DNA of 64,000 nucleotides from Schlesneria paludicola DSM 18645 (GTDB lineage: Bacteria > Planctomycetota > Planctomycetia > Planctomycetales > Planctomycetaceae), in the NCBI RefSeq assembly GCF_000255655.1, contig NZ_JH636436.1, positions 654,985 to 718,984 of the forward strand. Direction: 5' to 3'. The position numbers and the translations under genes were made by a program. Below are positions 3,064-39,659 of the stretch, one piece after another (the stretch's first letter is position 1; each line of letters starts with the position of its first letter). The notes beneath the pieces were generated by a model. It searched no databases, had not been told where the DNA came from, and saw only the letters and a list, made by a program, of their open reading frames with translations.

Positions 3064-3118
3064 ACTTTGACTCGCTGACCCGCGATCAACAGTGTCGCGA
3101 GGTCACGCTGGCGTTTGG

Positions 3119-4424: not shown

Positions 4425-5072
4425 TTACTCAATCACTCCCGCCGTGGAAGACTTGGCCGCGCGGTCGTCTGTTTTGACAGACGTCGCAGGGCCTAGCGTA
4501 TGCAGTTCAACGAAATCACTGGCATGACCCAACTGGCCTTTGTGCGTCCGGATGGGGTTGTTGGGGGTGTCTTTGGTCTGGTCAAAGACGCTTAACAGTT
4601 TCTCTTTGTCGAACATCATTTCCTGGCGGGTCAACCCGACCAGATCGAAGATGTTGGTCAATTCGATGGAATCAACGGGACACGCTTCTTCGCACATCCC
4701 GCAGTAGATGCACTTCAGTTCGTCGATCACAAAGGATTTCGGGAACTTGTCGCGATCGGCCCAGTGAGGATCATCCTTCGGGGCATCCTGAGCGACGATG
4801 TCAATGCACCGAGCTGGGCATGCCGTGGCGCACATCATGCATGCCACGCATTTGACGCGACCTTTGTCGTCGCGATTCAAACGGTGTACGCCACGATAGT
4901 GTGTTGGCAGTGCCGGTTTTTGTTCTGGGTAGAATTCCGTGACGGGGTTGAAGTCCGTGACGTGATTTCCCGTCGTCCGCAAACCGTCGAAGACCGCGGG
5001 AAGGAATGTCGATTCCCAGAAGTTCATCGGCGGTTCTTCGACCCAGTCGACGTCTTTCGGATCAATGGCCAT
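4425..5072 (-). CDS. nuoI: NADH-quinone oxidoreductase subunit I (2x[4Fe-4S] ferredoxin)
   Basis: Two CxxCxxCxxxCP motifs (CIYCGMCEEACP, CVACMMCATACP). Confidence 0.9.
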   Translation of the reverse strand: MAIDPKDVDWVEEPPMNFWESTFLPAVFDGLRTTGNHVTDFNPVTEFYPEQKPALPTHYRGVHRLNRDDKGRVKCVACMMCATACPARCIDIVAQDAPKDDPHWADRDKFPKSFVIDELKCIYCGMCEEACPVDSIELTNIFDLVGLTRQEMMFDKEKLLSVFDQTKDTPNNPIRTHKGQLGHASDFVELHTLGPATSVKTDDRAAKSSTAGVIE

Positions 5073-6433: not shown

Positions 6434-8095
6434 TCAACCGACTGGTTGAAGTGTGGCCGCGCCGGTCGAGGATAACAACACTCCCTCTTCGGACAGATCG
6501 CCCACCTTGAGCGCTGCCAGTGCGGGGATTTCGCCCGCGATTTCCTGTCGTAACGTCGAGGCGTGGAACAAGCCATGGCGTCCGGCGAGTTCCATTAAAA
6601 TTCGTCCATCGGGCCGACTGAATTCCGGTCCACGCAATCCGCGATGAATGGCTTGTGCCAACCCAGCATGATTGACGAACGTACCATCTTTTTCGGCCCA
6701 GGCCGCCCCGGCGAGCACAAACTGAGCTTTGTCGCTTGCGGGTGTGGCGATCAGGTCTTGAACGATGAGCGTCTTCAGTTTGTCGAGCTTGCCGATGTCG
6801 GCTGCATCAATCCAGCCTTCAGGATCTCCACCCAGGACATACAGCGTGTCGATGCTGCCGCGGGTGACTTGTTCGAGAATTGCTGATTGCGTGACGACCT
6901 GTCCACCGAAATGCTTGAGGACGGCTTCGACACCGCGCTTGTTCGGGCACTTTTCGGCGCGGATCGTAAACTTCGTTGGCAGGACCGGTTTTCCGTGGAC
7001 GTCCTTCGGGTACAGGTCATCGCCTCCGACCATCCGAACGTGCCCCAGCCCCAATTTCACCTCGGGATTGATCGACTTCGCGTATTTCGCGAGCAGATAC
7101 GCTTCTTCAACGGTTGCCCACGGCGAGATCAGTACCGCCAGCTTGGATTTCGCCTGCTGCAAGGCGTTGCGGACGGCAGGCAGAATCGCATCCCAGTCTT
7201 TCGATGTGACCGTACCATTGGAACGTTGTTCAGGCGTCTTGAGCCGCTTGTCCGAATGGATGTACTTCCAGCCGAACCGACCTTCGTCACACATGAAGCT
7301 GCCCTGGGCCTGTGGATTTTCACGAGGCTTCAGGCGATACAGGACGTCTTCGTTCTGATCGACCGTGATGCTGCAACCGGTGCTGCAGTTTGGACAGACG
7401 CTGTTCTTCGACTTCAGCCACCAGACGCGCTGTTCGTAGAGGAAATCTTTGCTGCAGAGCGCACCCACCGGGCAAAGGTCGACAACATTACCAGCCAATT
7501 TGTTGTTACACGGTTCGCCGGGGAAGATGTCGATCTCTTCGTGCGTTCCGCGGCTGACGACCTGCATTTCGGCCGTGCCGCTGATCTCGCGCGTGAACCG
7601 CACGCAGCGCGTACACATGATGCAGCGATCGGTGAACAGAGTGATCTGATCGCCGATGTAATCTTTGTCCGGCTTGATGTTCTTAGGCTCTTGCAACCGG
7701 CTGTAACCGCGTCCGTACTTGTAGCTGTAGTCTTGCAAGCCGCATTCGCCAGCCTGATCGCAGACGGGGCAGTCGAGCGGGTGGTTCAGCAGCAGGTACT
7801 CAAGCGTCGCCTTCTGTGCGGCGAGCACCTTTTCACTGTTGGAAATCACGACCGTGCCATCTTTGACGGGAGTCTGACAACCGGGCAGCAGTTTGGGCTG
7901 CATGGCGATCGTGCCGTCCGGCTTTTTCTCGCCGACTTCGACCAGACACATGCGACAACTGGCGACGACCGATAGATCATGATGCCAGCAGTAGCTAGGG
8001 ATTTCGTCACCGGCCCTTTGAGCAGCCTGAATGCAGTTCAGTCGCTCGTTGGCACCAATCTCAACCGGCTTGTTGTTAACGATAACTGTGGGCAT
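6434..8095 (-). CDS. nuoG: NADH-quinone oxidoreductase subunit G (short, 553 aa)
   Basis: N-terminal 2Fe-2S and 4Fe-4S cysteine motifs (CWHHDLSVVASCRMCLVEV, CIMCTRCVRF). Shorter than enterobacterial NuoG. Confidence 0.85.
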   Translation of the reverse strand: MPTVIVNNKPVEIGANERLNCIQAAQRAGDEIPSYCWHHDLSVVASCRMCLVEVGEKKPDGTIAMQPKLLPGCQTPVKDGTVVISNSEKVLAAQKATLEYLLLNHPLDCPVCDQAGECGLQDYSYKYGRGYSRLQEPKNIKPDKDYIGDQITLFTDRCIMCTRCVRFTREISGTAEMQVVSRGTHEEIDIFPGEPCNNKLAGNVVDLCPVGALCSKDFLYEQRVWWLKSKNSVCPNCSTGCSITVDQNEDVLYRLKPRENPQAQGSFMCDEGRFGWKYIHSDKRLKTPEQRSNGTVTSKDWDAILPAVRNALQQAKSKLAVLISPWATVEEAYLLAKYAKSINPEVKLGLGHVRMVGGDDLYPKDVHGKPVLPTKFTIRAEKCPNKRGVEAVLKHFGGQVVTQSAILEQVTRGSIDTLYVLGGDPEGWIDAADIGKLDKLKTLIVQDLIATPASDKAQFVLAGAAWAEKDGTFVNHAGLAQAIHRGLRGPEFSRPDGRILMELAGRHGLFHASTLRQEIAGEIPALAALKVGDLSEEGVLLSSTGAATLQPVG

Positions 8096-8158: not shown

Positions 8159-9553
8159 TCAGTGGACTTCCATCAATGCGTCTGAGGGTTTCACGGTTTT
8201 GCGTCCGGTGCGAATGTACTCTTCAAACTCGCCGCGGAACTTCTTGATCGCATTCTTGATCGGCCAGGCTGCTCCGTCGGACAGACCACAGATCGTGGTG
8301 CCGGGGATGATGCCCATCGACGAGGCGACTTCGACGAGAAGATCGAGGTCGCGCAGTTGGCCTTCGCCCATTCGAATTCGGGCGAGAATCTTGTGCATCC
8401 ATGCGGTTCCTTCACGGCAGGGCGTGCATTGGCCGCACGATTCATGCGCAAAGAAGCGAGCACAGTTGAACAGGACGTCGACCATGCTGGTCTCATCGTC
8501 GATCACGGTGATCGCCGCCGTGCCGAGACCCAGGCAGCCGGCCTTGCCGGGGCCGTTGAAATCGAGTGGAAGATCCAATTCTTCCGCAGAGAGAAAGCCC
8601 ATGCTGATTCCACCGGGAACGACCGCCTTGGCTTTGCGACCTTTCCAGACACCACCGGCATGCTTGTCGATCAATTCACGAGTTGTGATACCCATTGGCA
8701 GTTCAACACAACCCGGCTTATTGACGTGACCGCTGATGCAATACAGCTTGGGACCGTAGCTGCCGGCGTCGCGAGGATTGTTGGGGTCGGGCGGGACACC
8801 CAGACTCTTGAACCAGGCCGAACCGCGATCAAGAATTTGCTTGACGCATGCCATCGTTTCGATGTTGTTGACGATGGTGGGTTTTCGGAACAGCCCTTCG
8901 ATGGCGGGGAACGGAGGCTTGATTCGTGGCCAGGCGCGTTTGCCTTCGAGGCTTTCGATCAGTCCGGTTTCTTCACCACAGATATAGGCCGCCGCACCGC
9001 GATGCAGCACAACGTCGAGATCGAATCCGGTACCATGGATGTTCTTTCCGAACAGTCCCTTGGCATAGCATTCGTCGACGGCCTTCTGCAAGACGCGATA
9101 GCTGCGACCATACTCGTATCGCAGATAGATATAGGCCTTGTTCGATTTAATGGCGAAGCAACTGATCGCAATCCCTTCGAGGATCTGATGGGGATCTTCT
9201 TCCATCAGGATGCGATTGTTGAACGTGGCCGGTTCGGATTCATCCGCGTTGATGGCGAGATAGATCGGTCCGGCATGGTCCTTTGGCAGGAACGTCCATT
9301 TTAATCCGGTGGGAAATCCGGCCCCGCCGCGACCGCGCAGCCCCGAATCTTTCACCAGATTGATGACGTCGACCGGTGGCATCGCGAGCGCTTTCTTGAA
9401 GCCCTCGTAGCCGCCGTCACGCAGGTAAGTTTCCAGCGACGCACTGTCTGGTTTCCCGACGCGTGCCAAAAGTGTTGGTTCAAAGGTGGGCATATGTGTC
9501 TCGGAAGAAGCATGCACGGTTCGTATCAGAATCGCCGTCGATTCTGGTCGCAT
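8159..9553 (-). CDS. nuoF: NADH-quinone oxidoreductase subunit F
   Basis: FMN/NADH-binding motifs (GRGGAGFPTGLKW) and a C-terminal 4Fe-4S motif (ESCGQCTPCREG). Confidence 0.9.
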   Translation of the reverse strand: MRPESTAILIRTVHASSETHMPTFEPTLLARVGKPDSASLETYLRDGGYEGFKKALAMPPVDVINLVKDSGLRGRGGAGFPTGLKWTFLPKDHAGPIYLAINADESEPATFNNRILMEEDPHQILEGIAISCFAIKSNKAYIYLRYEYGRSYRVLQKAVDECYAKGLFGKNIHGTGFDLDVVLHRGAAAYICGEETGLIESLEGKRAWPRIKPPFPAIEGLFRKPTIVNNIETMACVKQILDRGSAWFKSLGVPPDPNNPRDAGSYGPKLYCISGHVNKPGCVELPMGITTRELIDKHAGGVWKGRKAKAVVPGGISMGFLSAEELDLPLDFNGPGKAGCLGLGTAAITVIDDETSMVDVLFNCARFFAHESCGQCTPCREGTAWMHKILARIRMGEGQLRDLDLLVEVASSMGIIPGTTICGLSDGAAWPIKNAIKKFRGEFEEYIRTGRKTVKPSDALMEVH

Positions 9554-9584
9554 CCGCTAGGCTTCCAACTCCTGAATTCGACTC

Positions 9585-10070
9585 TCACAAGGACTTCAAA
9601 AGTGCATCCGCCTTCTCGGGCGTGATGTTCATATGGGCTTCGTCATCGACCAGGATGCAGGGAGCGCCTTCGCAGGCACCCAGGCATTCGGCAAATTCCA
9701 TCGTGATTTTTCCATCCGCGGACGTTTGCCCAGGATGCACATGCAACTTCTCGCACATGTGTTGCAGCAATTCTTCACCGCCGCGCAACATGCAACTGAT
9801 GCTGCGGCAGACCCAGACGCGATGCTTTCCCAGCTTGTGCTTCTCGTCTTTGAAGAACTGGTAGAACGACATCGTGTCGTGGACTTCGGACGGGTGCAGT
9901 TCAAGCAGTTCCGCAATCTCACGGACAGCTTCGATCGAAACCGATCGCTGTGCGTCCTGCACCAAGTGCAGCGCTGGCAGGACGACGGCTCGCTTATTCG
10001 GGTACTTTGGGAATTGCGCCCGGATCTGGTCTCGCAATTCCTCGCTCAACACGCCCATCGTTTCTCTCAC
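9585..10070 (-). CDS. nuoE: NADH-quinone oxidoreductase subunit E
   Basis: 161-aa thioredoxin-like 2Fe-2S protein (CRSISCMLRG...CLGACEGAP). Confidence 0.9.
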   Translation of the reverse strand: MRETMGVLSEELRDQIRAQFPKYPNKRAVVLPALHLVQDAQRSVSIEAVREIAELLELHPSEVHDTMSFYQFFKDEKHKLGKHRVWVCRSISCMLRGGEELLQHMCEKLHVHPGQTSADGKITMEFAECLGACEGAPCILVDDEAHMNITPEKADALLKSL

Positions 10071-10165
10071 TTCACAACAAAACTTCAGTACTTTGCGCTG
10101 CGTCTGTCTTTTGCGCTGGTGGCCAGGGTGCCACGGAAATCTTCATGTCGTGGGCTGCGGCCCGG

Positions 10166-11386
10166 TTATCGATCCAACTCTGCGGCGATGATGTTCAAGC
10201 TCCCGAGAACCGCGACCACGTCGCTGAGCTGGTGGTTCTTGATGATCTGCGGGAACACCGAGAAGTGAACGTAGCTCGGGGGACGCGTTCGGGCGCGGTA
10301 CGAACGCGGCGAACCATCGCCGACGATGTAGTAGCCCAGTTCCCCGTTTGGCGATTCGGTTGCCGCGTAGATTTCTTCTTTCGGAGTCGGGAAGCCGCGG
10401 TTTGGCATCATGACTTCGAAGTGCTGAATCAAACCCTCGATGCTGCGGTAAACGGACGGCTTGGCGGGAATGACGGCTTTGCTGCCGGCGTCAACGTTCA
10501 CTGGGCCTTCGGGAATGTTCTCGATGCACTGCTCGATGATCTTGATGCTTTCGACCATTTCCTGCATTCGCACGAGATACCGTGCGTAGCAATCGCCGTC
10601 TTTCGCGGCGACGACTTTGAAGTCGAGGTCGGCATAGGCAAGGTAGGGCTCGTCCTTACGCAAGTCACGCAGCACACCACTGGCGCGGGCCAAGGGGCCT
10701 GTCACACCCATGTTGATGCAGTCTTCTGCGCTCAGATGGCCAATCCCTTTGACACGCTCGATGAAGATGCGGTTACGGGTGAGAAGGCGGTGCACTTCGG
10801 CATGGACGTCAGGGAAGCCTTTGACGAACGCCCGTACCTTGTCGACCCAGGCATTGTTGACATCAAACGCGACACCACCGACGCGAGTGTAGCTGGTGTG
10901 GAATCGCTGGCCCGAGGCGGTTTCAACGATGTCGTAGATGCGTTCACGCTGCTGGAAGAAATACAAGAACGCCGTGAAGCCGCCGAGGTCCAGTGCACAG
11001 GTTCCGGTGTTGAGCAGGTGATCCTGGATTCGCATCAGCTCGGCGAGAATTGTTCGCAGATACTTGCAGCGTGGAGTGATCTCGATCCCCAACAGCTTTT
11101 CGACGGCATGGTGCCACGAAATCTCGTTGTGCAGCGGCGAGATGTAGTTCATCCGGTCGACGATGGTGACGTACTGATTGAAGTCGAGGTGCTCACCCAG
11201 CTTTTCGAATCCTGAATGCAGGTATCCGATGTGGGGTACGGCATTGACGACCGTTTCACCGTCGAGCGTCAGGATCAGCCGCAACGTGGTGTGTGTGGCG
11301 GGGTGCTGCGGACCAAAGTTCAGCGTCCAGAGGTATTCCTTGTCTGGAGCGTCCATTTCGGCGAGATCAGATACTTCGAAAGGCAT
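10166..11386 (-). CDS. nuoD: NADH-quinone oxidoreductase subunit D
   Basis: 406-aa ORF with a NuoD/49-kDa-like sequence; separate from nuoC. Confidence 0.9.
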   Translation of the reverse strand: MPFEVSDLAEMDAPDKEYLWTLNFGPQHPATHTTLRLILTLDGETVVNAVPHIGYLHSGFEKLGEHLDFNQYVTIVDRMNYISPLHNEISWHHAVEKLLGIEITPRCKYLRTILAELMRIQDHLLNTGTCALDLGGFTAFLYFFQQRERIYDIVETASGQRFHTSYTRVGGVAFDVNNAWVDKVRAFVKGFPDVHAEVHRLLTRNRIFIERVKGIGHLSAEDCINMGVTGPLARASGVLRDLRKDEPYLAYADLDFKVVAAKDGDCYARYLVRMQEMVESIKIIEQCIENIPEGPVNVDAGSKAVIPAKPSVYRSIEGLIQHFEVMMPNRGFPTPKEEIYAATESPNGELGYYIVGDGSPRSYRARTRPPSYVHFSVFPQIIKNHQLSDVVAVLGSLNIIAAELDR

Positions 11387-31447: not shown

Positions 31448-32644
31448 TCACAACAGATTGACCACTTTGTCGGCGAGTCCCTTATCACCAAGGATGATAT
31501 TGAGCTTTCCGGCCGAAGCGATCTTTTCCAAGACTTCCAACTCGCGCAATCGCATCAGTGTCGGGCTGTCCGCCAGCAGTTTGGCCGTGTTGGCCTGGCT
31601 GCGGATCGCCGCTGTCTCTTCGCGTCGTGCGATCAAGTTCGCCTCGGCAGCCTTGTGAGCTTCCGTGACCTTGTTCATCAGATCCTTCATATCACCCGGC
31701 AGGATCACATCCCGGATACCGACCGAGGCGATCTCCAGTCCCAGTTCACCCGCTCGACGTCGGATGTTGTCCTGGATCTCCTTCGCGACAGCATCCTTGT
31801 CCGTCAGGAAAGCATCGAGTTCGCGCGCTCCCACCACGCCTCGCAGCACGAGCTGCGTGTCGCGGTACAGAGCCTGTCGCACATCGTCGGTCTGGCTGAC
31901 GGCCTTGCGAGCATCAACCACCTTGTAGGTCACGACAGCGTTCAGTCGCAAAGTGACTTTGTCGGCCGTCATGATCTCCTGACCACCAACGTCGACGATG
32001 GTTTCCCGCAGGTCAACTTCAACCAGCTTGGCTTCGGCCGTACCTTTCCAGAACGCGTACTCACCCGGAGCAAGCGAGTCGACATAGCGACCGTCGATGA
32101 AAAGCACGCCCACGTGATCACGCTGGACCGAGCCAACATCCAGGACACGGTTGGCCAGCGCCGAGCGGACAATCACCTTGAACTGTTCGTGCTCAAAGCG
32201 GACCGGTTGAATATCGATGATCTCGACGCGGACTTGCTTCTGGCCCGTCCAGCAGGCGTGCTGACCTGCTGGCAAGACTTGACTGAACCGGTTCTCGATC
32301 CAGACCAATGCTCGCTCGTTGTCCTTCAGGTCCAGGACCACGGCGCGCTCGGCGAGCGCACCAGACTTGATCATCAAGTCCAACTTCTCGTGAACGAGCC
32401 ACGGCTCACGCTGCGACACGACGTCGACACGGACTTTGCCGAATGGATCAAAGAACCAGTGAGCACCAGCCGTGAGCAGGCCTTGAAACTCACCGTCGCG
32501 GAACAACAAGCCCATTTCGTAGGTACGAATCTTGAAACGCTTCAACAGAATCACGGCAGACCTCCTTTCTGGAGGATCAATCAACGGAAGGCATTCTTGG
32601 CCTCGGGAATTCAATCGCTTTGACGATTTAGACGACAAAGACAC
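31448..32644 (-). CDS. SPFH/band-7 (slipin-like) domain protein
   Basis: RFKIRTYEMGLLFRDGEF start typical of slipin-like proteins; coiled-coil C-terminus. Confidence 0.8.
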   Translation of the reverse strand: MSLSSKSSKRLNSRGQECLPLIDPPERRSAVILLKRFKIRTYEMGLLFRDGEFQGLLTAGAHWFFDPFGKVRVDVVSQREPWLVHEKLDLMIKSGALAERAVVLDLKDNERALVWIENRFSQVLPAGQHACWTGQKQVRVEIIDIQPVRFEHEQFKVIVRSALANRVLDVGSVQRDHVGVLFIDGRYVDSLAPGEYAFWKGTAEAKLVEVDLRETIVDVGGQEIMTADKVTLRLNAVVTYKVVDARKAVSQTDDVRQALYRDTQLVLRGVVGARELDAFLTDKDAVAKEIQDNIRRRAGELGLEIASVGIRDVILPGDMKDLMNKVTEAHKAAEANLIARREETAAIRSQANTAKLLADSPTLMRLRELEVLEKIASAGKLNIILGDKGLADKVVNLL

Positions 32645-32958: not shown

Positions 32959-33030
32959 CGTGCTGTACGGGAGTCGAACCCGTGACTGCCAGATTCTCAG
33001 TCTGGTGCTCTACCTCTGAGCTAACGTCAC
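32959..33030 (-). tRNA. tRNA-like gene, anticodon GAG (leucine-type anticodon) but class-I length; acceptor stem with two internal mismatches (possible pseudogene)
   Basis: Good D-arm (GCTC-AGAGGTA-GAGC), anticodon arm (CCAGA-CTGAGAA-TCTGG) and T-arm (ACGGG-TTCGACT-CCCGT). Acceptor GTGACGT vs ACAGCAC has A·G and C·A mismatches. 5-nt variable region. Confidence 0.35.
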
Positions 33031-33134
33031 CAATGACTTCCGGTCAGAACCCATGTTCGGAACAGTCGGAGCAAAACTCTTTCGAGTGCCCCGACCGCCG
33101 CTGGACGGATGACATCAATGCTTTCAATCCAAAG

Positions 33135-33206
33135 AGACACCGGTGGGAGTCGAACCCACTGGATGCGGCTTTGCAGGCCGCCGCCACGCCGTGTGACATC
33201 AGCGTC
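33135..33206 (-). tRNA. tRNA-Cys (GCA)
   Basis: Anticodon arm GCGGC-CTGCAAA-GCCGC; T-loop TTCGACT; acceptor pairs with G·U wobbles; U73 discriminator as in tRNA-Cys. Confidence 0.55.
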
Positions 33207-33216
33207 ATTCAGTCAG

Positions 33217-33287
33217 TGTCCCTGCCAGGAGTTGAACCTGGTCTACGACCTTCGCAGGGTCGCGTGCATCCACCACACTCCAAGGAC
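33217..33287 (-). tRNA. tRNA-Arg (GCG)
   Basis: Acceptor GTCCTTG/CAGGGAC; D-stem GTGT/GCAC; anticodon loop CTGCGAA; T-loop TTCAACT; discriminator A. Confidence 0.6.
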
Positions 33288-33360
33288 AAAATATTGGTTC
33301 TCTCACTCAACGCGAGAACGACCTTCGATGACAAAACATTTGTGATCGCGCACTAAAAAA

Positions 33361-33431
33361 TACCCCACCGAGGAATCGAACCTCGCCCGACTGCTTCGAA
33401 GGCAGCCATGCATCCTTCACACTCGCAGGGC
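33361..33431 (-). tRNA. tRNA-Arg (TCG)
   Basis: Anticodon loop CTTCGAA; T-arm CGAGG-TTCGATT-CCTCG; acceptor pairs with three G·U wobbles. Confidence 0.5.
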
Positions 33432-33441
33432 ATATTTTCAT

Positions 33442-33513
33442 TCTCCCGACCTGGACTCGAACCAGGGCCTGGACCTTCGGAGAGTCCAATGCATTCCGCT
33501 ACAACATCGGGAC
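33442..33513 (-). tRNA. tRNA-Arg (CCG), G1·G72 mismatch
   Basis: Anticodon arm GGACT-CTCCGAA-GGTCC; T-arm CCTGG-TTCGAGT-CCAGG; first acceptor pair unpaired. Confidence 0.45.
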
Positions 33514-33599
33514 AAACAGGGCCGACGACTGGATTCGCACCAGCATGATTCCGCTTACAAGGCGGACGCCTTTCTCGATCGAGCCACGTCGGCAGTCAG

Positions 33600-33670
33600 C
33601 ACGAGCGCGAGGATTCGAACCCCATCCAGCAGTTTTGGAGGCTGCCCGCTCTCCCAGGAGCATCACTCGT
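33600..33670 (-). tRNA. tRNA-Trp (CCA)
   Basis: Anticodon loop CTCCAAA (as in E. coli tRNA-Trp); acceptor ACGAGTG/CGCTCGT; T-loop TTCGAAT; discriminator G. Confidence 0.5.
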
Positions 33671-33754
33671 GTGTTGCGTCCGCAAGGCGGGCACGAAAAA
33701 CATCGCGCGAACGATGAACCCATTCGTAACCCGTCTCGCGACGCGCATGAAAAA

Positions 33755-34402
33755 TCATTCATCCAATTCCACGGTCCAGTACGCCTCACTGAGGAACTTG
33801 GACCAGCTTCCGATCCGAACATCGTGCTGAGCATAGAGCGGTTTCCAGGTTGGACGTGTCGGCACCTTCTGCAACGGCATGTGTGCTTCAGCGGGTGTAC
33901 GATCGGCTTTGCGCAGGTTGCATTCCAGACACGCCAAAACACAGTTCTCCCAGACGCTGGTCCCACCTCGAGATCGAGGCAACACGTGATCGATCGTTAG
34001 GTCTTCTGTTCTGAGACACTCATGGCGCGGGCTGCGTTCGGCCTGTGAATCCCGATTGTCCACGCCGATGAAGCGGCTATGCCGCCCACAGTACTGACAG
34101 GTGTATCGATCTCGTTTGTAGATGTTTCGGCGACTGAATGTGACCGTGTTTGTGGGAACCCGGTCATATTCGGTCAGGGTGATCACCTCCGGCACGCGAA
34201 TCCGAGACGTCACCGACTGGACGAACAGTTCATCGTCCTGTGGGATTCGCTTCGCCCAATCAGCCCAGGTGTGCTGCTGAAAGTCAGCCGGATCGACGAT
34301 TCGTGCCCGTTCCGCAGCCACCAGCGTCAATGAACGTGCCACCGAGGCCACACCCACCGGCTGCCAGTTCCGGTTCAGTACCAGAGTCTGTCGACTCAAC
34401 AT
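33755..34402 (-). CDS. HNH endonuclease (McrA-like)
   Basis: HNH motif (YTCQYCG...IDHVLPRSRGGTSVWENCVLACLECNLRK). Start set at the internal Met (MLSRQTLVLN) so it does not overlap tRNA-His. Confidence 0.7.
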   Translation of the reverse strand: MLSRQTLVLNRNWQPVGVASVARSLTLVAAERARIVDPADFQQHTWADWAKRIPQDDELFVQSVTSRIRVPEVITLTEYDRVPTNTVTFSRRNIYKRDRYTCQYCGRHSRFIGVDNRDSQAERSPRHECLRTEDLTIDHVLPRSRGGTSVWENCVLACLECNLRKADRTPAEAHMPLQKVPTRPTWKPLYAQHDVRIGSWSKFLSEAYWTVELDE

Positions 34403-34434
34403 CGCCACCACGATTTTCTCTTTCTTATGAAAAG

Positions 34435-34509
34435 GGTGTTCGAACGGGATTGAACCGTCACCTTCGGCTTCACAGGCCGACATGCAGAAACCACTACACC
34501 ACGAACACC
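34435..34509 (-). tRNA. tRNA-His (GTG) with encoded G-1
   Basis: Anticodon arm TCGGC-CTGTGAA-GCCGA; acceptor GTGTTCG/CGAACAC; an extra 5' G (G-1) opposite the C73 discriminator, the hallmark of tRNA-His. Confidence 0.7.
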
Positions 34510-34510
34510 G

Positions 34511-34616
34511 CGCCTTCGCGCGAGAAAGTAGACAGTAGAGAGTTGAAAGTAGAACTGGTTCGCGACGCGTCTTGTCTACTCTCTACTTTCAATCAACTAC
34601 TTTCTCGCGCAGCGTG
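34511..34616. repeat. Palindromic spacer repeat family A, copy 1 (begins 2 nt upstream of the tRNA-His 5' end)
   Basis: cgccttcgcgcgagaaagtag...ctactttctcgcgcagcg with ~14-bp outer inverted repeats; related copies at 36741-36838 and 38998-39110. Confidence 0.55.
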
Positions 34617-34706
34617 CGGAAGGAGCGGGAGTTGAACCCGCAAGGCACATTAAAAATGCTCGACCGGCTTCCAACCGGTTCCCGTCACCATTCGGGTTGC
34701 CCTTCC
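34617..34706 (-). tRNA. tRNA-Ser (GGA), class II
   Basis: Anticodon arm ACCGG-TTGGAAG-CCGGT; long variable arm; T-arm GCGGG-TTCAACT-CCCGC; discriminator G. Confidence 0.55.
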
Positions 34707-34719
34707 GTTTTGACTTCAA

Positions 34720-34791
34720 TACCTCGACCAGGAATCGAACCCAGAACTCCCCGTTAGAAGCGGAGCATGATTTCTATTTCACCATCGAGGC
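34720..34791 (-). tRNA. tRNA-Arg (TCT)
   Basis: Acceptor GCCTCGA/TCGAGGT; anticodon arm CTCCG-CTTCTAA-CGGGG; T-loop TTCGATT; discriminator A. Confidence 0.6.
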
Positions 34792-34801
34792 CAAAAACAA
34801 G

Positions 34802-34889
34802 CGGAAGGCAAGGGATTCGAACCCTCATCTCCCGTGAGGGAGAGTCGCGTTAGCAGTGCGGTCCGGCCAACCGTATCCGGCTACCTTCC
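34802..34889 (-). tRNA. tRNA-Ser (GCT), class II, weak anticodon stem
   Basis: Anticodon loop CTGCTAA; variable arm CTCCC-TCAC-GGGAG; T-arm GAGGG-TTCGAAT-CCCTT; discriminator G; anticodon stem has terminal mismatches. Confidence 0.5.
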
Positions 34890-34927
34890 AATATCGAAAA
34901 GTTGAAATGCGTTTGCGCGGCATGGTC

Positions 34928-35416
34928 TCATCGCCGTTTCACGCCAGGATCGGCGAAATGTTCAATTCTTGTATGCCGTCCCGTTTCAATGTCCGCGAAG
35001 ACGTAATTCTCCGACGCGACCGGTGACCCAGCCATCCTCCGGAAAATGCCGATCTGCCCCAAGTGCAGCATCGCGTCCGCAAACGGACCTTGCAGCAGGT
35101 CCTCTTCATTGACATCGCGAATTGAAGACTCGTTGAGAAGTGACGCGTCAAGCTTTGCTAGGATCTCGAAGTAACCAAACACTTCGGCATTCCATGCCAA
35201 CATAGGCGGCTCAGTGGATTCATAGGGAACCATGAACGAATGCGCGTAGATGAGCACACCTCTCATGTGATTGAGAATCTCGCGTGGGCTTCGAACAGAT
35301 TCTGAGGGCCGGAAGTCTGCGATTTCCGGTGGCATATTCCTGAGCACATTGGCTCCGCGATATGCCAGCGCCGACAGAAAGTGCCGCAGCATGTATCTCT
35401 TCGTCGTTGTTTCCAT
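34928..35416 (-). CDS. DinB/YfiT-like four-helix-bundle protein (hypothetical)
   Basis: Start has GGAGAT 5 nt upstream (METTTKRYMLRHF...). DinB_2-like size and His spacing. Weak assignment. Confidence 0.45.
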   Translation of the reverse strand: METTTKRYMLRHFLSALAYRGANVLRNMPPEIADFRPSESVRSPREILNHMRGVLIYAHSFMVPYESTEPPMLAWNAEVFGYFEILAKLDASLLNESSIRDVNEEDLLQGPFADAMLHLGQIGIFRRMAGSPVASENYVFADIETGRHTRIEHFADPGVKRR

Positions 35417-35589
35417 CGTTATCTCCAATTGTTCCCAACGATTCGCCAAAGCGGCCTGTGAACATACTGAGTCGATTGATCCCCAATAGCGTTGAACCAT
35501 CAGTTCCAGCATGTCAGGTTGATGTCGTACTGATTGATCATGACGTCATGATCAATCGAATAACGAAATCTGAGACCTCAATCCAGAAG

Positions 35590-36254
35590 TTATTCCCAGT
35601 ATTGCTCCCACTTGTCGCCGTAAGATTCCTTGAGGCGTTCTAGGTAGACATAAGTCTTGATCTTGCCCATTTGCAAATCGCGGCCGCTTCGTCCTGATTT
35701 GCAAATGACACCCTCGGTGACACCGTATTTCCCGCAACGAACATCTTCGGCGAATGCCCCGGTGAACTTGCCACGGTGAACTTGCCACGGTACACGATTC
35801 GTGCAATCGGAAGATGTCCGAACCGTTCTACGAATTCGAAAGGCCCGAGTAGGTCTTCGTCACGTGCGACATCAAACATGACCAATCGCTTGACATCATC
35901 AAATTTATGTCGCCCAGCGAATGAATTCGCTCCGAGGTATTCAGCAAATGCAGTGAACCCTTGAACTGTGCTTTCCGAGGCCAATTCACTGAACGTGTGG
36001 GCCAAGGACGCGGACAATGTTTGACGAAAAACTTCCATCGCATCCGATAGCTCAGGGTGATCGTGACGAAACAGTTCCTCGCCGCGATCATCAATATTGA
36101 ACTCATCGCGTCGCGTTCCAAACGCATGCCAGCCGAAGTCCCGATCCCAACGGAAATGCAAATTCGTTCCGTCGTATTTTTCGAAAGCTATGCACTCGGT
36201 GAACGGGAAGTCTTTAGTGTTCGGAATCTTGCGGTAATGTAGCGCGGAGGGCAT
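35590..36254 (-). pseudogene. Rnl2-family ATP-dependent RNA ligase (nucleotidyltransferase domain), apparently frameshifted by a 14-bp tandem duplication at 35761-35788
   Basis: Motif I EKYDGTNLHF (cf. T4 Rnl2 EKIHGTNF), motif III-like AFAEYLG, motif IV LVMFDV and RGKF are in the annotated 204-aa frame (35640-36254). Motif V EGVICKSG appears only in the frame restored by deleting one 14-nt unit, which then runs to TAA at 35590. Confidence 0.5.
35761..35788. repeat. Perfect 14-bp tandem duplication (ggtgaacttgccac x2) inside the RNA-ligase coding region
   Basis: Direct reading of the sequence; the unit length is not a multiple of 3. Confidence 0.9.
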
Positions 36255-36343
36255 GGAGGAATCCTGGCTATCGACCTGATCGCTTTTCCTGTTTGCGTAC
36301 TTGGCCGTCTACTTTCACGGTCGGGTGCCTGCCCTGTCTGCAG

Positions 36344-36428
36344 TGACCAAGGGGAGAGTCGAACTCCCAAGCCCACGAGGGGCACGACGTTCTGAGCGTC
36401 GCGTGTCTACCAGTTGCACCACTTGGCC
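36344..36428 (-). tRNA. tRNA-Leu (CAG), canonical class II
   Basis: 3-bp D-stem with 11-nt loop containing GGTAGA; anticodon arm CGACG-CTCAGAA-CGTCG; 16-nt variable arm (GCCC-CTCGT-GGGC); discriminator A. Confidence 0.7.
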
Positions 36429-36436
36429 ATAATCAG

Positions 36437-36509
36437 TGACCCGTGCGGGATTTGAACCCGCGTTGCCGGCATGAGGGGCCAGCATCCTGAACCGCTAGAA
36501 GAACGGGCC
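36437..36509 (-). tRNA. tRNA-like gene with atypical anticodon loop CCCTCAT (C33; anticodon CTC/Glu-like or CAT-like)
   Basis: Good acceptor (GGCCCGT/ACGGGTC), T-arm GCGGG-TTCAAAT-CCCGC, 6-bp anticodon stem; identity unresolved. Confidence 0.35.
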
Positions 36510-36519
36510 GTTGTTCGAG

Positions 36520-36600
36520 TGCGTCGGGCAGGAGTTGAACCTGCACTGCACGAGGCGGGTGGGTTACAGCCACTTGGGCACGCCAATGCCCAGCCGACGC
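36520..36600 (-). tRNA. tRNA-Tyr (GTA), class II
   Basis: Acceptor GCGTCGG/CCGACGC perfect; D-stem GGGC/GCCC; anticodon loop CTGTAAC; 13-nt variable arm; discriminator A. Confidence 0.65.
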
Positions 36601-36664
36601 ATTCTAATTCGCGCTCACGAATATCTTGCAAACGGGTGTCGTTCGCGCGATGCACGTGAGCGAG

Positions 36665-36739
36665 TAACACGGGTGGGAGTCGAACCCACAGACCACGAAG
36701 GTTTGAGCTTCGCCGCTTTGCCGGATTGCGTACCGTGCC
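36665..36739 (-). tRNA. tRNA with CAA (leucine-type) anticodon, Leu-like D-arm but short variable region (class I length, 75 nt)
   Basis: Anticodon arm CGAAG-CTCAAAC-CTTCG perfect; D-stem CGC/GCG with 11-nt loop; variable region only 6 nt; discriminator A. Confidence 0.5.
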
Positions 36740-36740
36740 G

Positions 36741-36838
36741 CGCCTTCTGCGAGAGAGTAAAAGGTTGAAAGTCGCAAGTAGACAAGAATGGATCCGTCTA
36801 CTCTCAACTCACTACCACCTACTTTCTCGCGCAGCGTA
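36741..36838. repeat. Palindromic spacer repeat family A, copy 2 (fills the spacer between two tRNAs)
   Basis: cgccttctgcgagagagta...ctactttctcgcgcagcgtagc; shares the termini of copy 1. Confidence 0.55.
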
Positions 36839-36839
36839 G

Positions 36840-36913
36840 CGTCCTCGATGGGATTTGAACCCACGTCTCCACCGTGACAGGATGGAGAGCATTCCAGGCT
36901 GCTCCGCGAGGAC
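36840..36913 (-). tRNA. tRNA-Asp (GTC)
   Basis: Acceptor GTCCTCG/CGAGGAC perfect; D-arm GAGC/GCTC; anticodon loop CTGTCAC; discriminator G. Confidence 0.7.
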
Positions 36914-37034
36914 TTTTTCACGCGCGATCAAGATGGGAATGGAAATCAGTGTCGACCGCGCGTTGATAATTAACTCACCTCCCAACGCGCGAGTGACTGG
37001 GTCTGCGCAACCCATCACCGACGCGCACTAAACG

Positions 37035-37108
37035 TAGCTCAGGTGGGAGTCGAACCCACAGCATCCCTGGTTCTAAGCCAAGGTGGTCTGCCGATTGCCT
37101 ACCGAGCC
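37035..37108 (-). tRNA. tRNA with TAG (leucine-type) anticodon and short variable region; weak D-stem
   Basis: Anticodon arm CTTGG-CTTAGAA-CCAGG; T-arm GTGGG-TTCGACT-CCCAC; 6-nt variable region; discriminator A. Confidence 0.45.
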
Positions 37109-37121
37109 ATGTCTTGTTTGA

Positions 37122-37194
37122 TGCCCAGAGCGGGATTTGAACCCGCAAACACTCGATCTTAAGTCGAGTCACTCACACGTTGGCGTACCTGGGC
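37122..37194 (-). tRNA. tRNA with TAA (leucine-type) anticodon and 5-nt variable region (73 nt)
   Basis: Acceptor GCCCAGG/TCTGGGC; 3-bp D-stem plus 10-nt loop; anticodon arm CTCGA-CTTAAGA-TCGAG perfect; T-arm GCGGG-TTCAAAT-CCCGC; discriminator A. Confidence 0.5.
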
Positions 37195-37206
37195 ATGTCA
37201 TCGAAG

Positions 37207-37278
37207 TAATCCCGGATGGACTCGAACCATCGTTACCTGGGTGTAGGCCAGGCGTCGTCGCCGCTGGACCACGGGATC
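37207..37278 (-). tRNA. tRNA-Val (TAC) with C33
   Basis: Anticodon arm CCTGG-CCTACAC-CCAGG (position 33 is C); T-arm GATGG-TTCGAGT-CCATC; discriminator A. Confidence 0.5.
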
Positions 37279-37288
37279 AAATAAAAAA

Positions 37289-37359
37289 TGGACTTATCGG
37301 GAATCGCACCCGAATTTTTGGTTTGCAGGACCGATGTCTTCCTGTTGGACCATGAGCCC
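37289..37359 (-). pseudogene. Degenerate tRNA-like element (non-canonical T-loop TGCGATT, acceptor and anticodon-stem mismatches; loop CCTGCAA)
   Basis: Only partial cloverleaf complementarity. Confidence 0.25.
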
Positions 37360-37379
37360 GATTGTTCGTCGCCAGCGAG

Positions 37380-37465
37380 CGGAAGCCGTGGGGCTCGAAC
37401 CCACAAGCGGGATGTTCCCGCCGCCTGTTTTCAAGACAGGTTCCTCATCCGGCCGGATGACTTCC
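37380..37465 (-). tRNA. tRNA-Ser (TGA), class II
   Basis: Acceptor GGAAGTC/GGCTTCC; anticodon arm CCTGT-CTTGAAA-ACAGG; variable arm GCGGG-AACAT-CCCGC; discriminator G. Confidence 0.6.
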
Positions 37466-37477
37466 GTAATCTGTAAA

Positions 37478-37551
37478 TTGTGGGAGTTGGAATCGAACCA
37501 ACGCCTCCGGGTTCAGAGCCCAGCATCGCCACCAGCAGCGACTATCCCGCA
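37478..37551 (-). tRNA. tRNA-Gln (CTG)
   Basis: U1-A72 first pair as in tRNA-Gln; D-stem GTCG/CGAT; anticodon arm CTGGG-CTCTGAA-CCCGG; one C3·A70 mismatch. Confidence 0.55.
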
Positions 37552-37627
37552 ATGAATTTGATTGAGACAAGACACTCGTACTTTCCAAGGGTTCGTGTGC
37601 TACCGTGGTTCTCGGTAAACTGATGGA

Positions 37628-38101
37628 ATGGATGTGAACTGTGCCAAGCAGATGTTCTTTGCCTACGACGGGTCGCGTTTCTACATGTCGCGAAACGGAG
37701 ATGAGGACAAATACGCTCAGATGCAGGTCCCAGCATCGATCGAAGCACAATGGTTGGATGAGTTGACATCTCGCAAACTCGATCAACTCATTTCTTCGGC
37801 AAATTGGATGGTTGTACATTTTCTCCTTCATCATTCCGACTTCCGCCAATTGGACCGACTCGCCGCAGCTGCGCCATTGGGAACTCTTCAGGAGAAATGT
37901 GCATTTCTTGAGGAACTCCTAAAATATGTACAGCAATGTTGTGGAGCATATGAGTCCAGTCGTCTCGCTAACGTTTGCGATTCAATTCTTCGAGATGCAT
38001 TCACGTTGCGAAAGCGGGCTCGGGCGAAGAATTCCCTTGCTCGAATTGAACGCCTCGTCGAGAACGCCGAAAAGTTTGTCGCGACGTTGCTCTCAGATTG
38101 A
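37628..38101 (+). CDS. Hypothetical protein (157 aa) in a lower-GC segment inside the tRNA array
   Basis: Intact ORF on the opposite strand to the array with no overlap with tRNAs; no recognisable motif. Confidence 0.4.
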   Translation: MDVNCAKQMFFAYDGSRFYMSRNGDEDKYAQMQVPASIEAQWLDELTSRKLDQLISSANWMVVHFLLHHSDFRQLDRLAAAAPLGTLQEKCAFLEELLKYVQQCCGAYESSRLANVCDSILRDAFTLRKRARAKNSLARIERLVENAEKFVATLLSD

Positions 38102-38104
38102 TGA

Positions 38105-38178
38105 ATTGCGGGGGCAGGAATCGAACCTGCGCCTCCGGGGTCAAAGCCCAGCATCGCTGCCAACAGCGACTACCCCGC
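38105..38178 (-). tRNA. tRNA-Gln (TTG)
   Basis: Acceptor TGCGGGG/CCCCGCA perfect with U1-A72; anticodon arm CTGGG-CTTTGAC-CCCGG; T-arm GCAGG-TTCGATT-CCTGC. Confidence 0.7.
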
Positions 38179-38185
38179 AATGGAA

Positions 38186-38257
38186 GAGGGACGGGTGGGA
38201 CTCGAACCCACGCGCTGGTGCTTAACAAACACCTGCTCTGCCGCTGAGCTACCGACC
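38186..38257 (-). tRNA. tRNA-Asn (GTT), T4·T69 acceptor mismatch
   Basis: D-arm GCTC-AGCGGCA-GAGC; anticodon arm GGTGT-TTGTTAA-GCACC; T-arm GTGGG-TTCGAGT-CCCAC. Confidence 0.55.
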
Positions 38258-38264
38258 CAATCGA

Positions 38265-38336
38265 GAGTGCCCTGCGGGAATCGAACCCGCCTGTCCAACT
38301 TGGAAGGCTGGCACCTCTGCCGATCGGTCAAGGGCA
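38265..38336 (-). tRNA. tRNA-Gly (TCC)
   Basis: Acceptor GTGCCCT/AGGGCAC perfect; anticodon arm CCAGC-CTTCCAA-GTTGG; U73 discriminator. Confidence 0.65.
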
Positions 38337-38359
38337 CATATTCTTTCCTCAAGTCGGAA

Positions 38360-38491
38360 GCCGTGGGACTCGAACCCACAATCCCGATTCTCGGGACACC
38401 TGCTTTCGAGCGTTGTACATCTATCGCGGCTTCAGCCTTCATCCTCGCTTTCGCTCGGCCGCAGGCCTTGCTTCCAGCCGGATGACTTCCA
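38360..38491 (-). tRNA. tRNA-Ser(CGA)-like gene with a ~50-nt insertion between anticodon-stem position 31 and the loop (intron-like or disrupted)
   Basis: Ends match tRNA-Ser(TGA) at 37380-37465 (GGAAGTCATCC... / ...GTGGGTTCGAGTCCCACGGCTTCCG). Stem CCTGC/GCAGG encloses the 50-nt insert followed by a canonical loop CTCGAAA. Variable arm TCCCG-AGAAT-CGGGA intact. Confidence 0.3.
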
Positions 38492-38634
38492 TTCGTGTTA
38501 AGGCTGCGGCGACAGGAATCGAACCATCAACCGAAGCCGCTGGCCGAATAGGTCAGTTGAAGGCGAAGGGCGATAGTCTTTCAAATCCGAGTCGCCTGCC
38601 CGTACCAACACGGACTCCACCGCAATTTATATCA

Positions 38635-38708
38635 GTCAGCGCGGTCGGATTTGAACCGACGATCTCGTGGTCCCAAGCCACGCGGATTTCCATGCTTTCC
38701 CACACGCT
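38635..38708 (-). tRNA. tRNA-Pro (TGG)
   Basis: C1-G72 first pair and A73, typical of tRNA-Pro; anticodon arm CGTGG-CTTGGGA-CCACG; T-arm GTCGG-TTCAAAT-CCGAC. Confidence 0.7.
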
Positions 38709-38768
38709 GACAATCGTTCATCGCGGATCGACCTTCGTTGTCATCAAGGATCGTCCACGCGAACAAAA

Positions 38769-38839
38769 AAGCACCCAGCGGGAGTTGAACCCGCACCTCC
38801 GCCTTGGCGAGACGGTACGCTGCCGCTACGTCATGGGTG
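38769..38839 (-). tRNA. tRNA-Gly (GCC) with C33
   Basis: Acceptor GCACCCA/TGGGTGC perfect; D-stem ACGT/GCGT; anticodon loop TCGCCAA; U73. Confidence 0.5.
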
Positions 38840-38923
38840 CATGCATTCCTGGCCGAATTGTTAAAGACCTATTCGCAACGCGCGATTGGCCAAGTTTGTG
38901 AACTCGCTTCATCGCGCATGAAA

Positions 38924-38995
38924 AAGCACCGGGTGGGACTCGAACCCACGTTGCCGTATTACGGGTGCGGTGTCTTGGCCGCTAAACGACCAGTG
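38924..38995 (-). tRNA. tRNA-Thr (CGT) with C33
   Basis: Acceptor GCACTGG/CCGGTGC; D-stem GTTT/AGAC; anticodon arm CCGCA-CCCGTAA-TACGG (one mismatch); T-arm GTGGG-TTCGAGT-CCCAC. Confidence 0.45.
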
Positions 38996-38997
38996 CA

Positions 38998-39110
38998 GCG
39001 CCTTCGGCGAGAAAGTAGAGAGTGGAAAGTCGTGAGTGGACAAGAACCGATCCGTCTACTTTCCACTCTCTACGGACTATTCTCTCTGTCCCGGCACGCC
39101 GGGACAGAGA
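38998..39110. repeat. Palindromic spacer repeat family A, copy 3, plus a 13-bp hairpin (ctctctgtcccgg/ccgggacagagag) that overlaps the 3' end of tRNA-Lys(CTT)
   Basis: cgccttcggcgagaaagtagagagtggaaagt...actttccactctctac has a perfect 16-bp inverted repeat. It starts 3 nt upstream of the 5' end of the preceding tRNA. Confidence 0.55.
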
Positions 39111-39179
39111 GACCAGACGGACTTGAACCGTCACTTGCTCGGGTAAGAACCGAGTGTGCTGCCACTAACACCTTGATCC
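39107..39179 (-). tRNA. tRNA-Lys (CTT)
   Basis: D-stem GTGT/GCAC; anticodon arm CTCGG-TTCTTAC-CCGAG perfect; T-arm GACGG-TTCAAGT-CCGTC; acceptor with two G·U wobbles. Confidence 0.6.
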
Positions 39180-39196
39180 CGTAATCCTTCGTTCAG

Positions 39197-39268
39197 TTAG
39201 GCCTGGGCGGAGTTGAACCGTCGTCTGGCCCTTATAAGGAGCCTGCTCTCATCGTTGAGCTACAGGCC
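39197..39268 (-). tRNA. tRNA-Ile (TAT)
   Basis: Canonical D-arm GCTC-AACGATGA-GAGC; anticodon arm GGCTC-CTTATAA-GGGCC; A73. Confidence 0.55.
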
Positions 39269-39277
39269 CAGTAATCA

Positions 39278-39349
39278 ATGGGGCCGGAGGGATTCGAACC
39301 CCCACCGGGCAGATTAAAAGTCTGCTGTGCTGCAGTTACACCACGACCC
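39278..39349 (-). tRNA. tRNA-Lys (TTT)
   Basis: Acceptor GGGGTCG/CGGCCCC; anticodon arm GCAGA-CTTTTAA-TCTGC perfect; T-loop TTCGAAT; A73. Confidence 0.65.
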
Positions 39350-39410
39350 CGGATGAGGACGTGGTTCCATTTGTTCGTGAGGTCTCGATCCATAATCTGC
39401 ACCTTGTTCA

Positions 39411-39481
39411 ATCGCTTGGAGTGGAGTTGAACCACCGCTGTCGCCGTATCAGAACGACGTGCTTCCGTTACACCACCAAGC
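39411..39481 (-). tRNA. tRNA-Ile (GAT)
   Basis: Acceptor CGCTTGG/CCAAGCG perfect; anticodon loop CTGATAC; T-arm GGTGG-TTCAACT-CCACT; A73. Confidence 0.6.
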
Positions 39482-39623
39482 GGAGTCGGGATGGTCAGAA
39501 TCGAACTGACTGTGTTCAACTACCGCGGCCCGGCCTTCATCCTCGCTATTCGCTCGGCGTCATTCCTTACTTCTCAGCTACCAGCCCGGAAATGACAGAA
39601 CTTTGACTTCGTCAAAACGAAGA

Positions 39624-39659
39624 AGCCCGGTGTCCTTTGCGTGACACCGGGCTCTTTTG
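39624..39659. terminator. GC-rich hairpin (11-bp stem agcccggtgtc/gacaccgggct) followed by a T-run; reads as a terminator in both orientations
   Basis: Perfect inverted repeat with cttttg on the plus strand and tcttcgttttg on the minus strand; lies at the upstream (minus-sense) edge of the tRNA array. Confidence 0.4.

Follow-up and report, generated by a model that had tools for sequence, protein, structure and literature searches.

Cyanobacterial STRR sequences consist of tandem 7-nt units in non-coding DNA, and the hairpin RNA of the Correia elements of Neisseria is cut by RNase III. Repetitive extragenic palindromic (REP) units are palindromes of 20–40 bp with an unpaired 5' GTAG, and GTAG-tagged REPs are reported from the PVC superphylum (PMC3733652). 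Long tRNA arrays (L-arrays) with a linked HNH gene are known from several phyla, Planctomycetes included (PMC8421152; PMC4758250); a search of these two papers for the terms hairpin, palindrome, spacer and stem-loop gave no hit. In the wider literature, no description was found of planctomycete hairpin repeats or of heptad repeats in tRNA arrays. Here, a 64-kb stretch of the genome of the planctomycete Schlesneria paludicola DSM 18645 (contig NZ_JH636436.1, positions 654,985 to 718,984; hereafter the window) was analyzed. It carries an L-array with an embedded HNH gene, and three spacers of this minus-strand array hold related imperfect palindromes of 99–110 nt, here named family A. On balance, the evidence leans towards the three copies being members of a dispersed, non-autonomous, non-coding palindromic repeat family of Planctomycetota, akin to miniature inverted-repeat transposable elements (MITEs) or REPs, that has settled in L-array spacers.

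Architecture of the family A repeats

The three copies announced in the original prediction, which was made from the letters of the sequence, are all present, between the tRNA genes Ser(GGA) and His, Asp and Leu(CAA), and Lys(CTT) and Thr(CGT), as called by ARAGORN (Table 1). Read in the sense of the tRNAs, the general layout runs from the 3' end of the upstream tRNA through (A)CGCTGCGCGAG, a purine-rich arm, a loop and a pyrimidine-rich arm to CTCGC-N1-2-GAAGGCGC; copy 1, for instance, is made of (A)CGCTGCGCGAG, a purine heptad arm, a 21-nt loop, a pyrimidine arm and CTCGCGCGAAGGCGC. In copy 3, housed in a spacer of 110 nt (38997–39106), a separate GC-rich hairpin stands in place of the (A)CGCTGCGCGAG leader. 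This small hairpin had been foreseen, with arms of 13 nt and an overlap of 3 nt with tRNA-Lys(CTT); it is real, but its arms are 15 nt long and it covers the last ~5 nt of that tRNA. The start pattern first proposed for the family is exact in copy 3, has one base extra in copy 1 and reads gagagagta in copy 2. The repeats do abut tRNA 5' ends, although more tightly than the 2–3 nt initially given: the gap between the GAAGGCGC end and the downstream tRNA is 0–1 nt (before G-1 in the case of tRNA-His), with zero bases separating copy 2 from tRNA-Leu(CAA) and 1 nt separating copy 3 from tRNA-Thr(CGT).

A 20-nt terminal pattern, TACTYTCTCGC-N1-2-GAAGGCGC, occurred three times in the 64 kb and not once in 100 shuffles. 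The long inverted repeat quoted for copy 3 proved exact, with 16/16 arms. Terminal inverted repeats are a general trait of the elements, since each is palindromic as a whole and its CGCTGCGCGAG and CTCGC-N-GAAGGCGC ends pair with a small asymmetric bulge. With 99–110 nt the elements lie within the size range of 50–500 bp considered for non-coding repeats; they have no coding capacity and no protein was assigned to them. In tRNA sense (minus strand), each spacer folds into one long, stable hairpin (−44.6 to −51.4 kcal/mol, z = −4.3 to −5.7), and none of 200 shuffles folded as stably. Individual values were −45.6 kcal/mol (z −4.35) for copy 1, −44.6 kcal/mol in tRNA sense versus −34.8 kcal/mol in antisense (z −5.70) for copy 2, and −51.4 kcal/mol (z −4.58) for the whole spacer of copy 3. 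A family covariance model scored 83.1, 89.2 and 84.9 bits for copies 1, 2 and 3, respectively, and matched only these three across the window, to which copy counts in the source genome refer. Searches of Rfam with the hairpins, at the gathering threshold and at E <= 1, gave no match.

Hairpins were detected by gapped self-alignment together with the covariance model. Their arms are degenerate tandem heptads, AGTNGRR in the purine arm and YYCNACT in the other, and the lag-7 autocorrelation of the arms had a mean of 0.55, compared with 0.33 for shuffles (max 0.39). The building block is a module in which a GC clamp, GCGCCTTCGGCGAG or CGCTGCGCGAG, precedes a run of 4–5 purine-rich degenerate heptads, and two facing modules separated by a loop of 11–21 nt make the hairpin of ~90 nt. 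The GTAG motifs are part of the paired arms. A lone arm, rich in purines, is unable to self-pair; only the clamp, CGCC-TTC-GGCG, can.

Occupancy of orthologous arrays

The tRNA order of the S. paludicola array matches that of L142, L140, L141, L062 and L143. Arrays sharing this order were compared by means of a table of junction gaps together with the junction sequences; L062, from a Planctomycetales metagenome-assembled genome (MAG), and L117, a metagenome contig, both came from pattern scans, and L140, L141, L142 and L143 were obtained via orthologues of the HNH gene. The junction Asp to Leu(CAA), 99 nt long here (copy 2), holds an orthologous copy in L117 and measures 6–7 nt in L142, L141, L140 and L062. 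The junction Lys(CTT) to Thr(CGT), 110 nt here (copy 3), measures 10–12 nt in L142, L140 and L062. Between Ser(GGA) and His, where copy 1 fills 107 nt, L142 and L140 have tRNA-Arg(CCT), and L141 has an unrelated hairpin of 104 nt. Family-A-like hairpins were found at further junctions: Glu to Leu(CAG) in both L117 and L141; Phe to Glu, Lys to Ile, Ser to Ala and Leu to Met in L062; and, in degenerate form, Lys to Thr in L143. Almost none exist within the arrays of L142 and L140, and one is located upstream of the L142 array. The loop CAAGAAnnGATCCG is common to copies 2 and 3 and has a similar counterpart in L117, and small hairpins like the GC-rich one of copy 3 directly follow the upstream tRNA in L117, L062 and L143. 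Empty junctions have A/T-rich leaders, whereas filled junctions have the GC-rich, partly paired leader GAAGGCGC instead.

With three copies here, relatives elsewhere and empty orthologous sites, the family displays both multi-copy dispersal and insertion polymorphism. That occupancy differs at orthologous junctions indicates that the hairpins are gained or lost as discrete units. In addition, the same tRNA pairs are separated by hairpin-free spacers of 6–12 nt in relatives, so that no hairpin is needed for the expression of a given tRNA pair, and a processing site or promoter acting as a required signal, one of the roles put forward in the original prediction, is unlikely; the hairpins may still have an accessory role at the RNA level. 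The other proposal, small mobile elements of the MITE or REP type, is the best supported one, given the presence or absence of copies at conserved orthologous junctions and the existence of members at other junctions and outside arrays.

Other spacers of the array were also surveyed. Four of them (38841–38924, 38710–38769, 36601–36663 and 39351–39411) have near-constant lengths (~84–94, 60–64, 63–64 and 58–61 nt, respectively) across most orthologous arrays with the junction, and some contain conserved hairpins with a GCGCG stem; unlike family A, these four spacers may be conserved functional elements. The Leu(TAG) to Asp spacer (36914–37033, 120 nt) contains two GC-rich hairpins, and the same junction measures 9–13 nt in L142, L140 and L062. 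This insert is lineage-specific and belongs to a family other than A.

Family members away from tRNA genes

Public genomes and metagenomes were scanned with the terminus pattern. These scans are blind to context and returned mostly chance matches in coding DNA, among which eight true relative loci were recognized. Two of the eight, L062 and L117, abut a tRNA, both within arrays, and the remaining six (L052, L102, L053, L115, L125 and L135) have no called tRNA in the stretch examined. The original prediction had proposed a search for further copies, and had named copies with no association to tRNA ends as what would speak against it. The search yielded relatives at tRNAs and also these six tRNA-free loci, which tell in part against it: targeting of tRNA boundaries is not supported as a property of the family.

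Two of the tRNA-free loci, L052 and L102, are from the same Schlesneria MAG, and L102 comprises three modules in 8 kb. At L125, the element begins 4 nt past a stop codon, and at L115 the final codons of an ORF and its stop come from the element. L135 is represented by strain variants (L144–L149), and L053, from a Phycisphaerales MAG, has both clamp types in direct order. The conserved terminus GCGCCTTCGGCGAG with a purine-rich arm is also found at the 3' ends of protein genes, either past them or within them, and there mostly in the form of one arm; single modules are present at L052, L102, L115, L135, L053 and L062, and inverted doublets in the arrays and upstream of the L142 array. In all contexts the flanks diverge immediately outside GCGCCTTC, indicating that the same element end lies beside a tRNA in one case and beside a protein gene in another. 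Since related genomes carry the family elsewhere or lack the copies, the hairpins look like tolerated insertions and not like tRNA-specific signals.

Some of these sequences hold additional repeats. Two further hairpin families with tandem heptad arms (GGATGAA and GAGTCTT/GAGGCTT) were noticed in L062, at 4751–4849, 4922–5007, 5596–5709, 5863–5959 and 7855–7934; they occupy many spacers of that array, and their loops are kept within each family. In L115, a hairpin repeat based on the 8-nt unit GAGGAGTC is placed in frame, at 414–490, within a small pilin-like ORF (308–676), and another one is found between genes at 231–303. All three of these families share the plan of family A.

Possible roles as RNA or DNA signals

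RNase III needs a long uninterrupted duplex, and the 14–16 uninterrupted pairs of the family A hairpins would suit it. The hairpins could accordingly be functional RNAs that promote the maturation or stability of particular tRNAs, serving as entry sites for RNase III, as barriers to 3'–5' exonucleases or as folding insulators, an explanation that we consider unlikely. In its favour, the copies lie in the transcribed orientation of the array and with the same polarity of their asymmetric termini, and in a set of 11 family-A hairpins the tRNA-sense fold exceeds the antisense one in stability by a mean of ~3.6 kcal/mol, with 40 G–U pairs in sense versus 25 in antisense. However, this strand bias is weak, the GGATGAA family has the opposite one, and C-to-T mutation linked to transcription could yield the same trend. 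Covariation was not found either (covariation term +2.26, with a double change in only 3/26 pairs), and there is weak evidence at best that selection acts on the RNA strand. Moreover, four related arrays have the same tRNA pairs 6–12 nt apart, which makes the hairpin dispensable, family members are also found downstream of protein genes and in single-arm form, and the GC-rich leader GAAGGCGC that replaces the A/T-rich leaders does not look optimised for RNase P.

A role at the DNA level was considered by analogy with Anabaena. In this cyanobacterium, short direct repeats over the −10 box control the genes of the L-array, HNH, RtcB, GNAT and slipin (PMC8421152; PMC10272220), and TrcR is a ribbon-helix-helix repressor reported as confined to cyanobacteria (PMC10272220). 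The tandem heptads of family A might similarly be bound by a regulator of the array, as operators or as sites that overlap a promoter, in the manner of the TrcR sites at the Anabaena trn operon and HNH gene. The 7-nt periodicity of the arms would suit such sites, the TrcR site TGTAGTAT and the heptads share a GTAG core, the gene neighbourhood is similar (HNH, RNA-ligase-like ORF and SPFH/slipin here; GNAT in L138), and a heptad, TACTYT, fits TANNNT at 14–16 nt upstream of the tRNA 5' end. The shared GTAG is a short stretch, however, and a period of 7 nt mismatches the helical repeat of DNA. No sigma-70-like promoter was found on the tRNA strand between 32.5 and 40.5 kb, nor a convincing −35 element, and no ribbon-helix-helix protein or other regulator was recognized among the array ORFs. 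TrcR itself is reported as cyanobacteria-only. The sites are also missing from orthologous arrays, and members occur at the 3' ends of unrelated genes. We therefore give little credence to protein-binding sites as an explanation of the repeats.

Other classes of structured elements were discarded. An integron attC site would have R''/R' cores (RYYYAAC ... GTTRRRY), which the CGCTGCGCGAG and GAAGGCGC termini lack, and no integrase was present among the scanned ORFs of the window. Intrinsic terminators were dismissed given that a terminator scan was empty at the three elements and that each hairpin is directly followed by a tRNA and not by a U tract. A protelomerase site was rejected on sequence grounds.

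Probable entry into the array and possible mode of copying

If family A is a dispersed repeat, as we favour, occupancy suggests that its copies entered the array spacers after the tRNA order was fixed, and that one entry, that of copy 1, eliminated tRNA-Arg(CCT) or took its place. Transcription presumably yields a polycistronic precursor of the array, in which the hairpins would be included. RNase P and an RNase Z-type enzyme, the latter expected because CCA is not encoded, would cut each tRNA free exactly at its ends, so that any insert sparing the tRNA bodies would be removed as spacer RNA. Selection would then keep only insertions placed precisely between tRNA ends, and this selection for intact tRNAs alone would explain the abutment of tRNA ends. 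Once excised, the long duplex would lend itself to cleavage by RNase III. Candidate routes for copying would be a Y1/RayT-like transposase, another enzyme or recombination.

Several observations weigh against a dispersed mobile repeat. Comparison of filled and empty junctions revealed no target-site duplication, and the spacer bases look replaced, not split; the sole possible duplication, a CG(A)CGAAC-like match at the Ser to Ala site of L062, is uncertain. Array copies with recognisable termini, about four independent cases, all have the same orientation with respect to the tRNAs, which would fit an RNA-level function too. Members away from tRNAs are mostly single arms, so that the hairpin form may be array-specific. 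Identity between copies is only 54–78%, with no clustering by genome and no indication of a recent burst among those compared, and gene-order-linked inheritance plus loss may be at work at some sites. No autonomous partner element was identified, the window being the part of the source genome that was analyzed, and co-transcription, tRNA-end processing and excision are presumptive steps.

The lack of target duplications and the divergence of the copies would also be compatible with a local origin without transposition, in which heptad slippage and intrastrand template switching would repeatedly generate palindromes in permissive spacers. The existence of several unrelated heptad or octad families with the same architecture (GGATGAA and GAGTCTT in L062; GAGGAGTC in L115) points in that direction as well. 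Nevertheless, loci that are not linked to one another share identical 14-nt GC clamps with similar arms, across genera and as far as a Phycisphaerales genome, which argues for copying from a common source, and loops are common to separate copies, as described above for CAAGAAnnGATCCG. The chances of a purely local origin are in our opinion slim.

As to the agent of copying, a dispersed repeat has a lead at one locus, L135/L144, where a single module is located just upstream (on the 5' side) of a 5'-truncated RayT-like gene. An HUH motif (SNHFHL) is present in homologues of the truncated gene, of which one matches the NCBIfam entry 'REP-associated tyrosine transposase' (E 3e-9) and another is called RayT in a source. 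S. paludicola encodes two RayT-like fragments, and RayT-like Y1 transposases with insertions are common in Planctomycetota. Two full-length RayT-like genes from another planctomycete metagenome (L153 and L154) are flanked by other inverted repeats and not by family A modules. These inverted repeats, GGGGACACAGC...GCTGTGTCCCC, bracket the genes ~1.5 kb apart (~4900–4915/~6415–6430 in L153 and ~4900–4915/~6405–6420 in L154), an arrangement described for some RAYTs. A far-reaching and highly speculative extension would make the clamp-plus-heptad module the recognition unit of a copying system of Planctomycetota, for example the insertion-bearing RayT-like Y1 transposases. Hairpins would be inserted by such a system where single-stranded DNA is structured, for example at the ends of tRNA genes, which would drive a cassette-like turnover of long tRNA arrays, including exact replacement of tRNA genes, as with copy 1 in the slot of tRNA-Arg(CCT).

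The host array and its neighbours

Table 1. Location of the family A copies, the tRNA array and associated genes in the window
Feature	Position	Strand	Remarks
Family A copy 1	34510..34615	-	Whole Ser(GGA) to His spacer (34509-34615, 107 nt)
Family A copy 2	36740..36838	-	Whole Asp to Leu(CAA) spacer, 99 nt
Family A copy 3 (core hairpin and GAAGGCGC terminus)	38997..39090	-	Most of Lys(CTT) to Thr(CGT) spacer
Short GC-rich hairpin, upstream side of copy 3	39081..39112	-	15/15 arms (39081-39095 / 39098-39112), 2 nt between
Host tRNA array	32959..39482	-	30 tRNAs by ARAGORN and two Rfam tRNA matches (37289-37359, 33361-33431)
tRNA-His	34434..34508	-	Directly downstream of copy 1; HNH endonuclease gene next
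tRNA-Leu(CAA)	36664..36739	-	Downstream of copy 2
tRNA-Thr(CGT)	38925..38996	-	Downstream of copy 3
HNH endonuclease ORF	33755-34483		Embedded in array; Pfam HNH matches
ORF of no assigned family	34928-35512		Embedded in array
RNA-ligase-like ORF	35640-36254		Embedded in array; weak match
SPFH/Band 7 (slipin) gene	31448-32644		Beside array

The product of the HNH gene is 100% identical to an S. paludicola protein of 218 aa. With its ~30 densely packed tRNA genes, the embedded HNH gene and neighbours of RNA-repair type, the locus has the composition of an L-array. A GNAT gene is found in the relative L138 (10718–11248). The TrcR regulon of the Anabaena array includes HNH, RNA ligase, GNAT and slipin (PMC10272220), and the genes within and next to the planctomycete array mirror it, which suggests that this array belongs to the same stress-linked system. 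The large ORFs of the window encode chromosomal housekeeping functions (complex I (Nuo), NiFe hydrogenase, HypF and glutamine synthetase). The presence of Nuo, hydrogenase and Hyp genes marks the locus as chromosomal, and a phage origin was rejected; BLAST of the array against phages matched single tRNA genes and nothing more, and viral_contigs, scanned for the terminus pattern, contained a single chance match, with neither hairpin nor tRNA.

Further features were recorded in the arrays. A motif of ~45 nt, GCCGAGCGA[A/AT]AGCGAGGATGAAGGC...CGCGGTAGT, occurs within tRNA-like sequences on the minus strand at 38338–38634 and 39483–39625, and in L141 at 863–993, 1339–1464 and 3013–3077. In the sequence at 39483–39625, the 5' part matches tRNA-Phe of L142 and L062; from there the sequence departs through the motif, and its T-arm and 3' end show no pairing with the 5' end. 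These tRNA-like sequences look like chimeric or disrupted tRNA genes. A terminator-like hairpin, AGCCCGGTGTC...GACACCGGGCT, with a T-rich tail is present on the minus strand at 39623–39654 and also in L142 (~1370–1410) and L062 (~2790–2830); in the three arrays it is conserved immediately before the first tRNA-Phe(-like) gene, at the upstream boundary of the array. A near-perfect palindrome, GTACTGATTGATCATGACGTCATGATCAATC..., lies at 35521–35570 between two ORFs located within the array. In L140, a gene of the Ro60/TROVE family (9493–11130) follows the related array a few kb downstream. The partners of Ro60 are tRNA-like Y RNAs, and a Y-RNA-like gene might therefore exist near that array.

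Comparison with known systems

Should family A be a dispersed repeat, long tRNA arrays would be permissive landing sites for hairpin repeats and not just stores of genes, and precise processing of tRNA ends would neutralise the inserts, giving a simple rule for repeats that abut tRNA ends. It would also call for caution in taking such repeats as processing or promoter signals, and the hairpins would serve as markers for the rapid turnover of L-arrays. If the heptads instead serve as binding sites of a regulator or direct RNase III, they would provide a handle on the stress-linked control of arrays outside cyanobacteria.

Like the Correia elements of Neisseria and the enterobacterial ERIC/IRU elements, family A consists of dispersed non-coding imperfect palindromes of ~100 nt that are variable at orthologous sites, and it would resemble them too in being transcribed with neighbouring genes into hairpin RNA. 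It differs from both in that no target-site duplication was seen, in its degenerate heptad arms with purine/pyrimidine strand asymmetry, in its many single arms and in its host, the Planctomycetota. We know of no insertion sequence related to family A. Compared with cyanobacterial STRR sequences, its heptads are degenerate, limited to 4–5 units, matched by an inverted copy and closed off by a conserved GC clamp, and they belong to another phylum. With REPs and REPINs, family A shares the occurrence as singlets and inverted doublets, the doublets forming a hairpin of ~100 nt, as well as the absence of target duplication, a location downstream of genes, the presence of GTAG and, in one case, a module beside a RayT-like pseudogene (L135/L144). 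By contrast to a REP, however, a single module is not palindromic apart from its 11-nt clamp, and the GTAGs are paired within the arms, so that family A falls outside the REP definition. REPs number tens to hundreds per genome; for family A, the 64-kb window has three copies and the 8-kb locus L102 of a Schlesneria MAG three modules. The combination of a GC clamp with inverted heptad tracts would accordingly add an undescribed architecture to the bacterial non-autonomous elements, one that spans classes of Planctomycetota.

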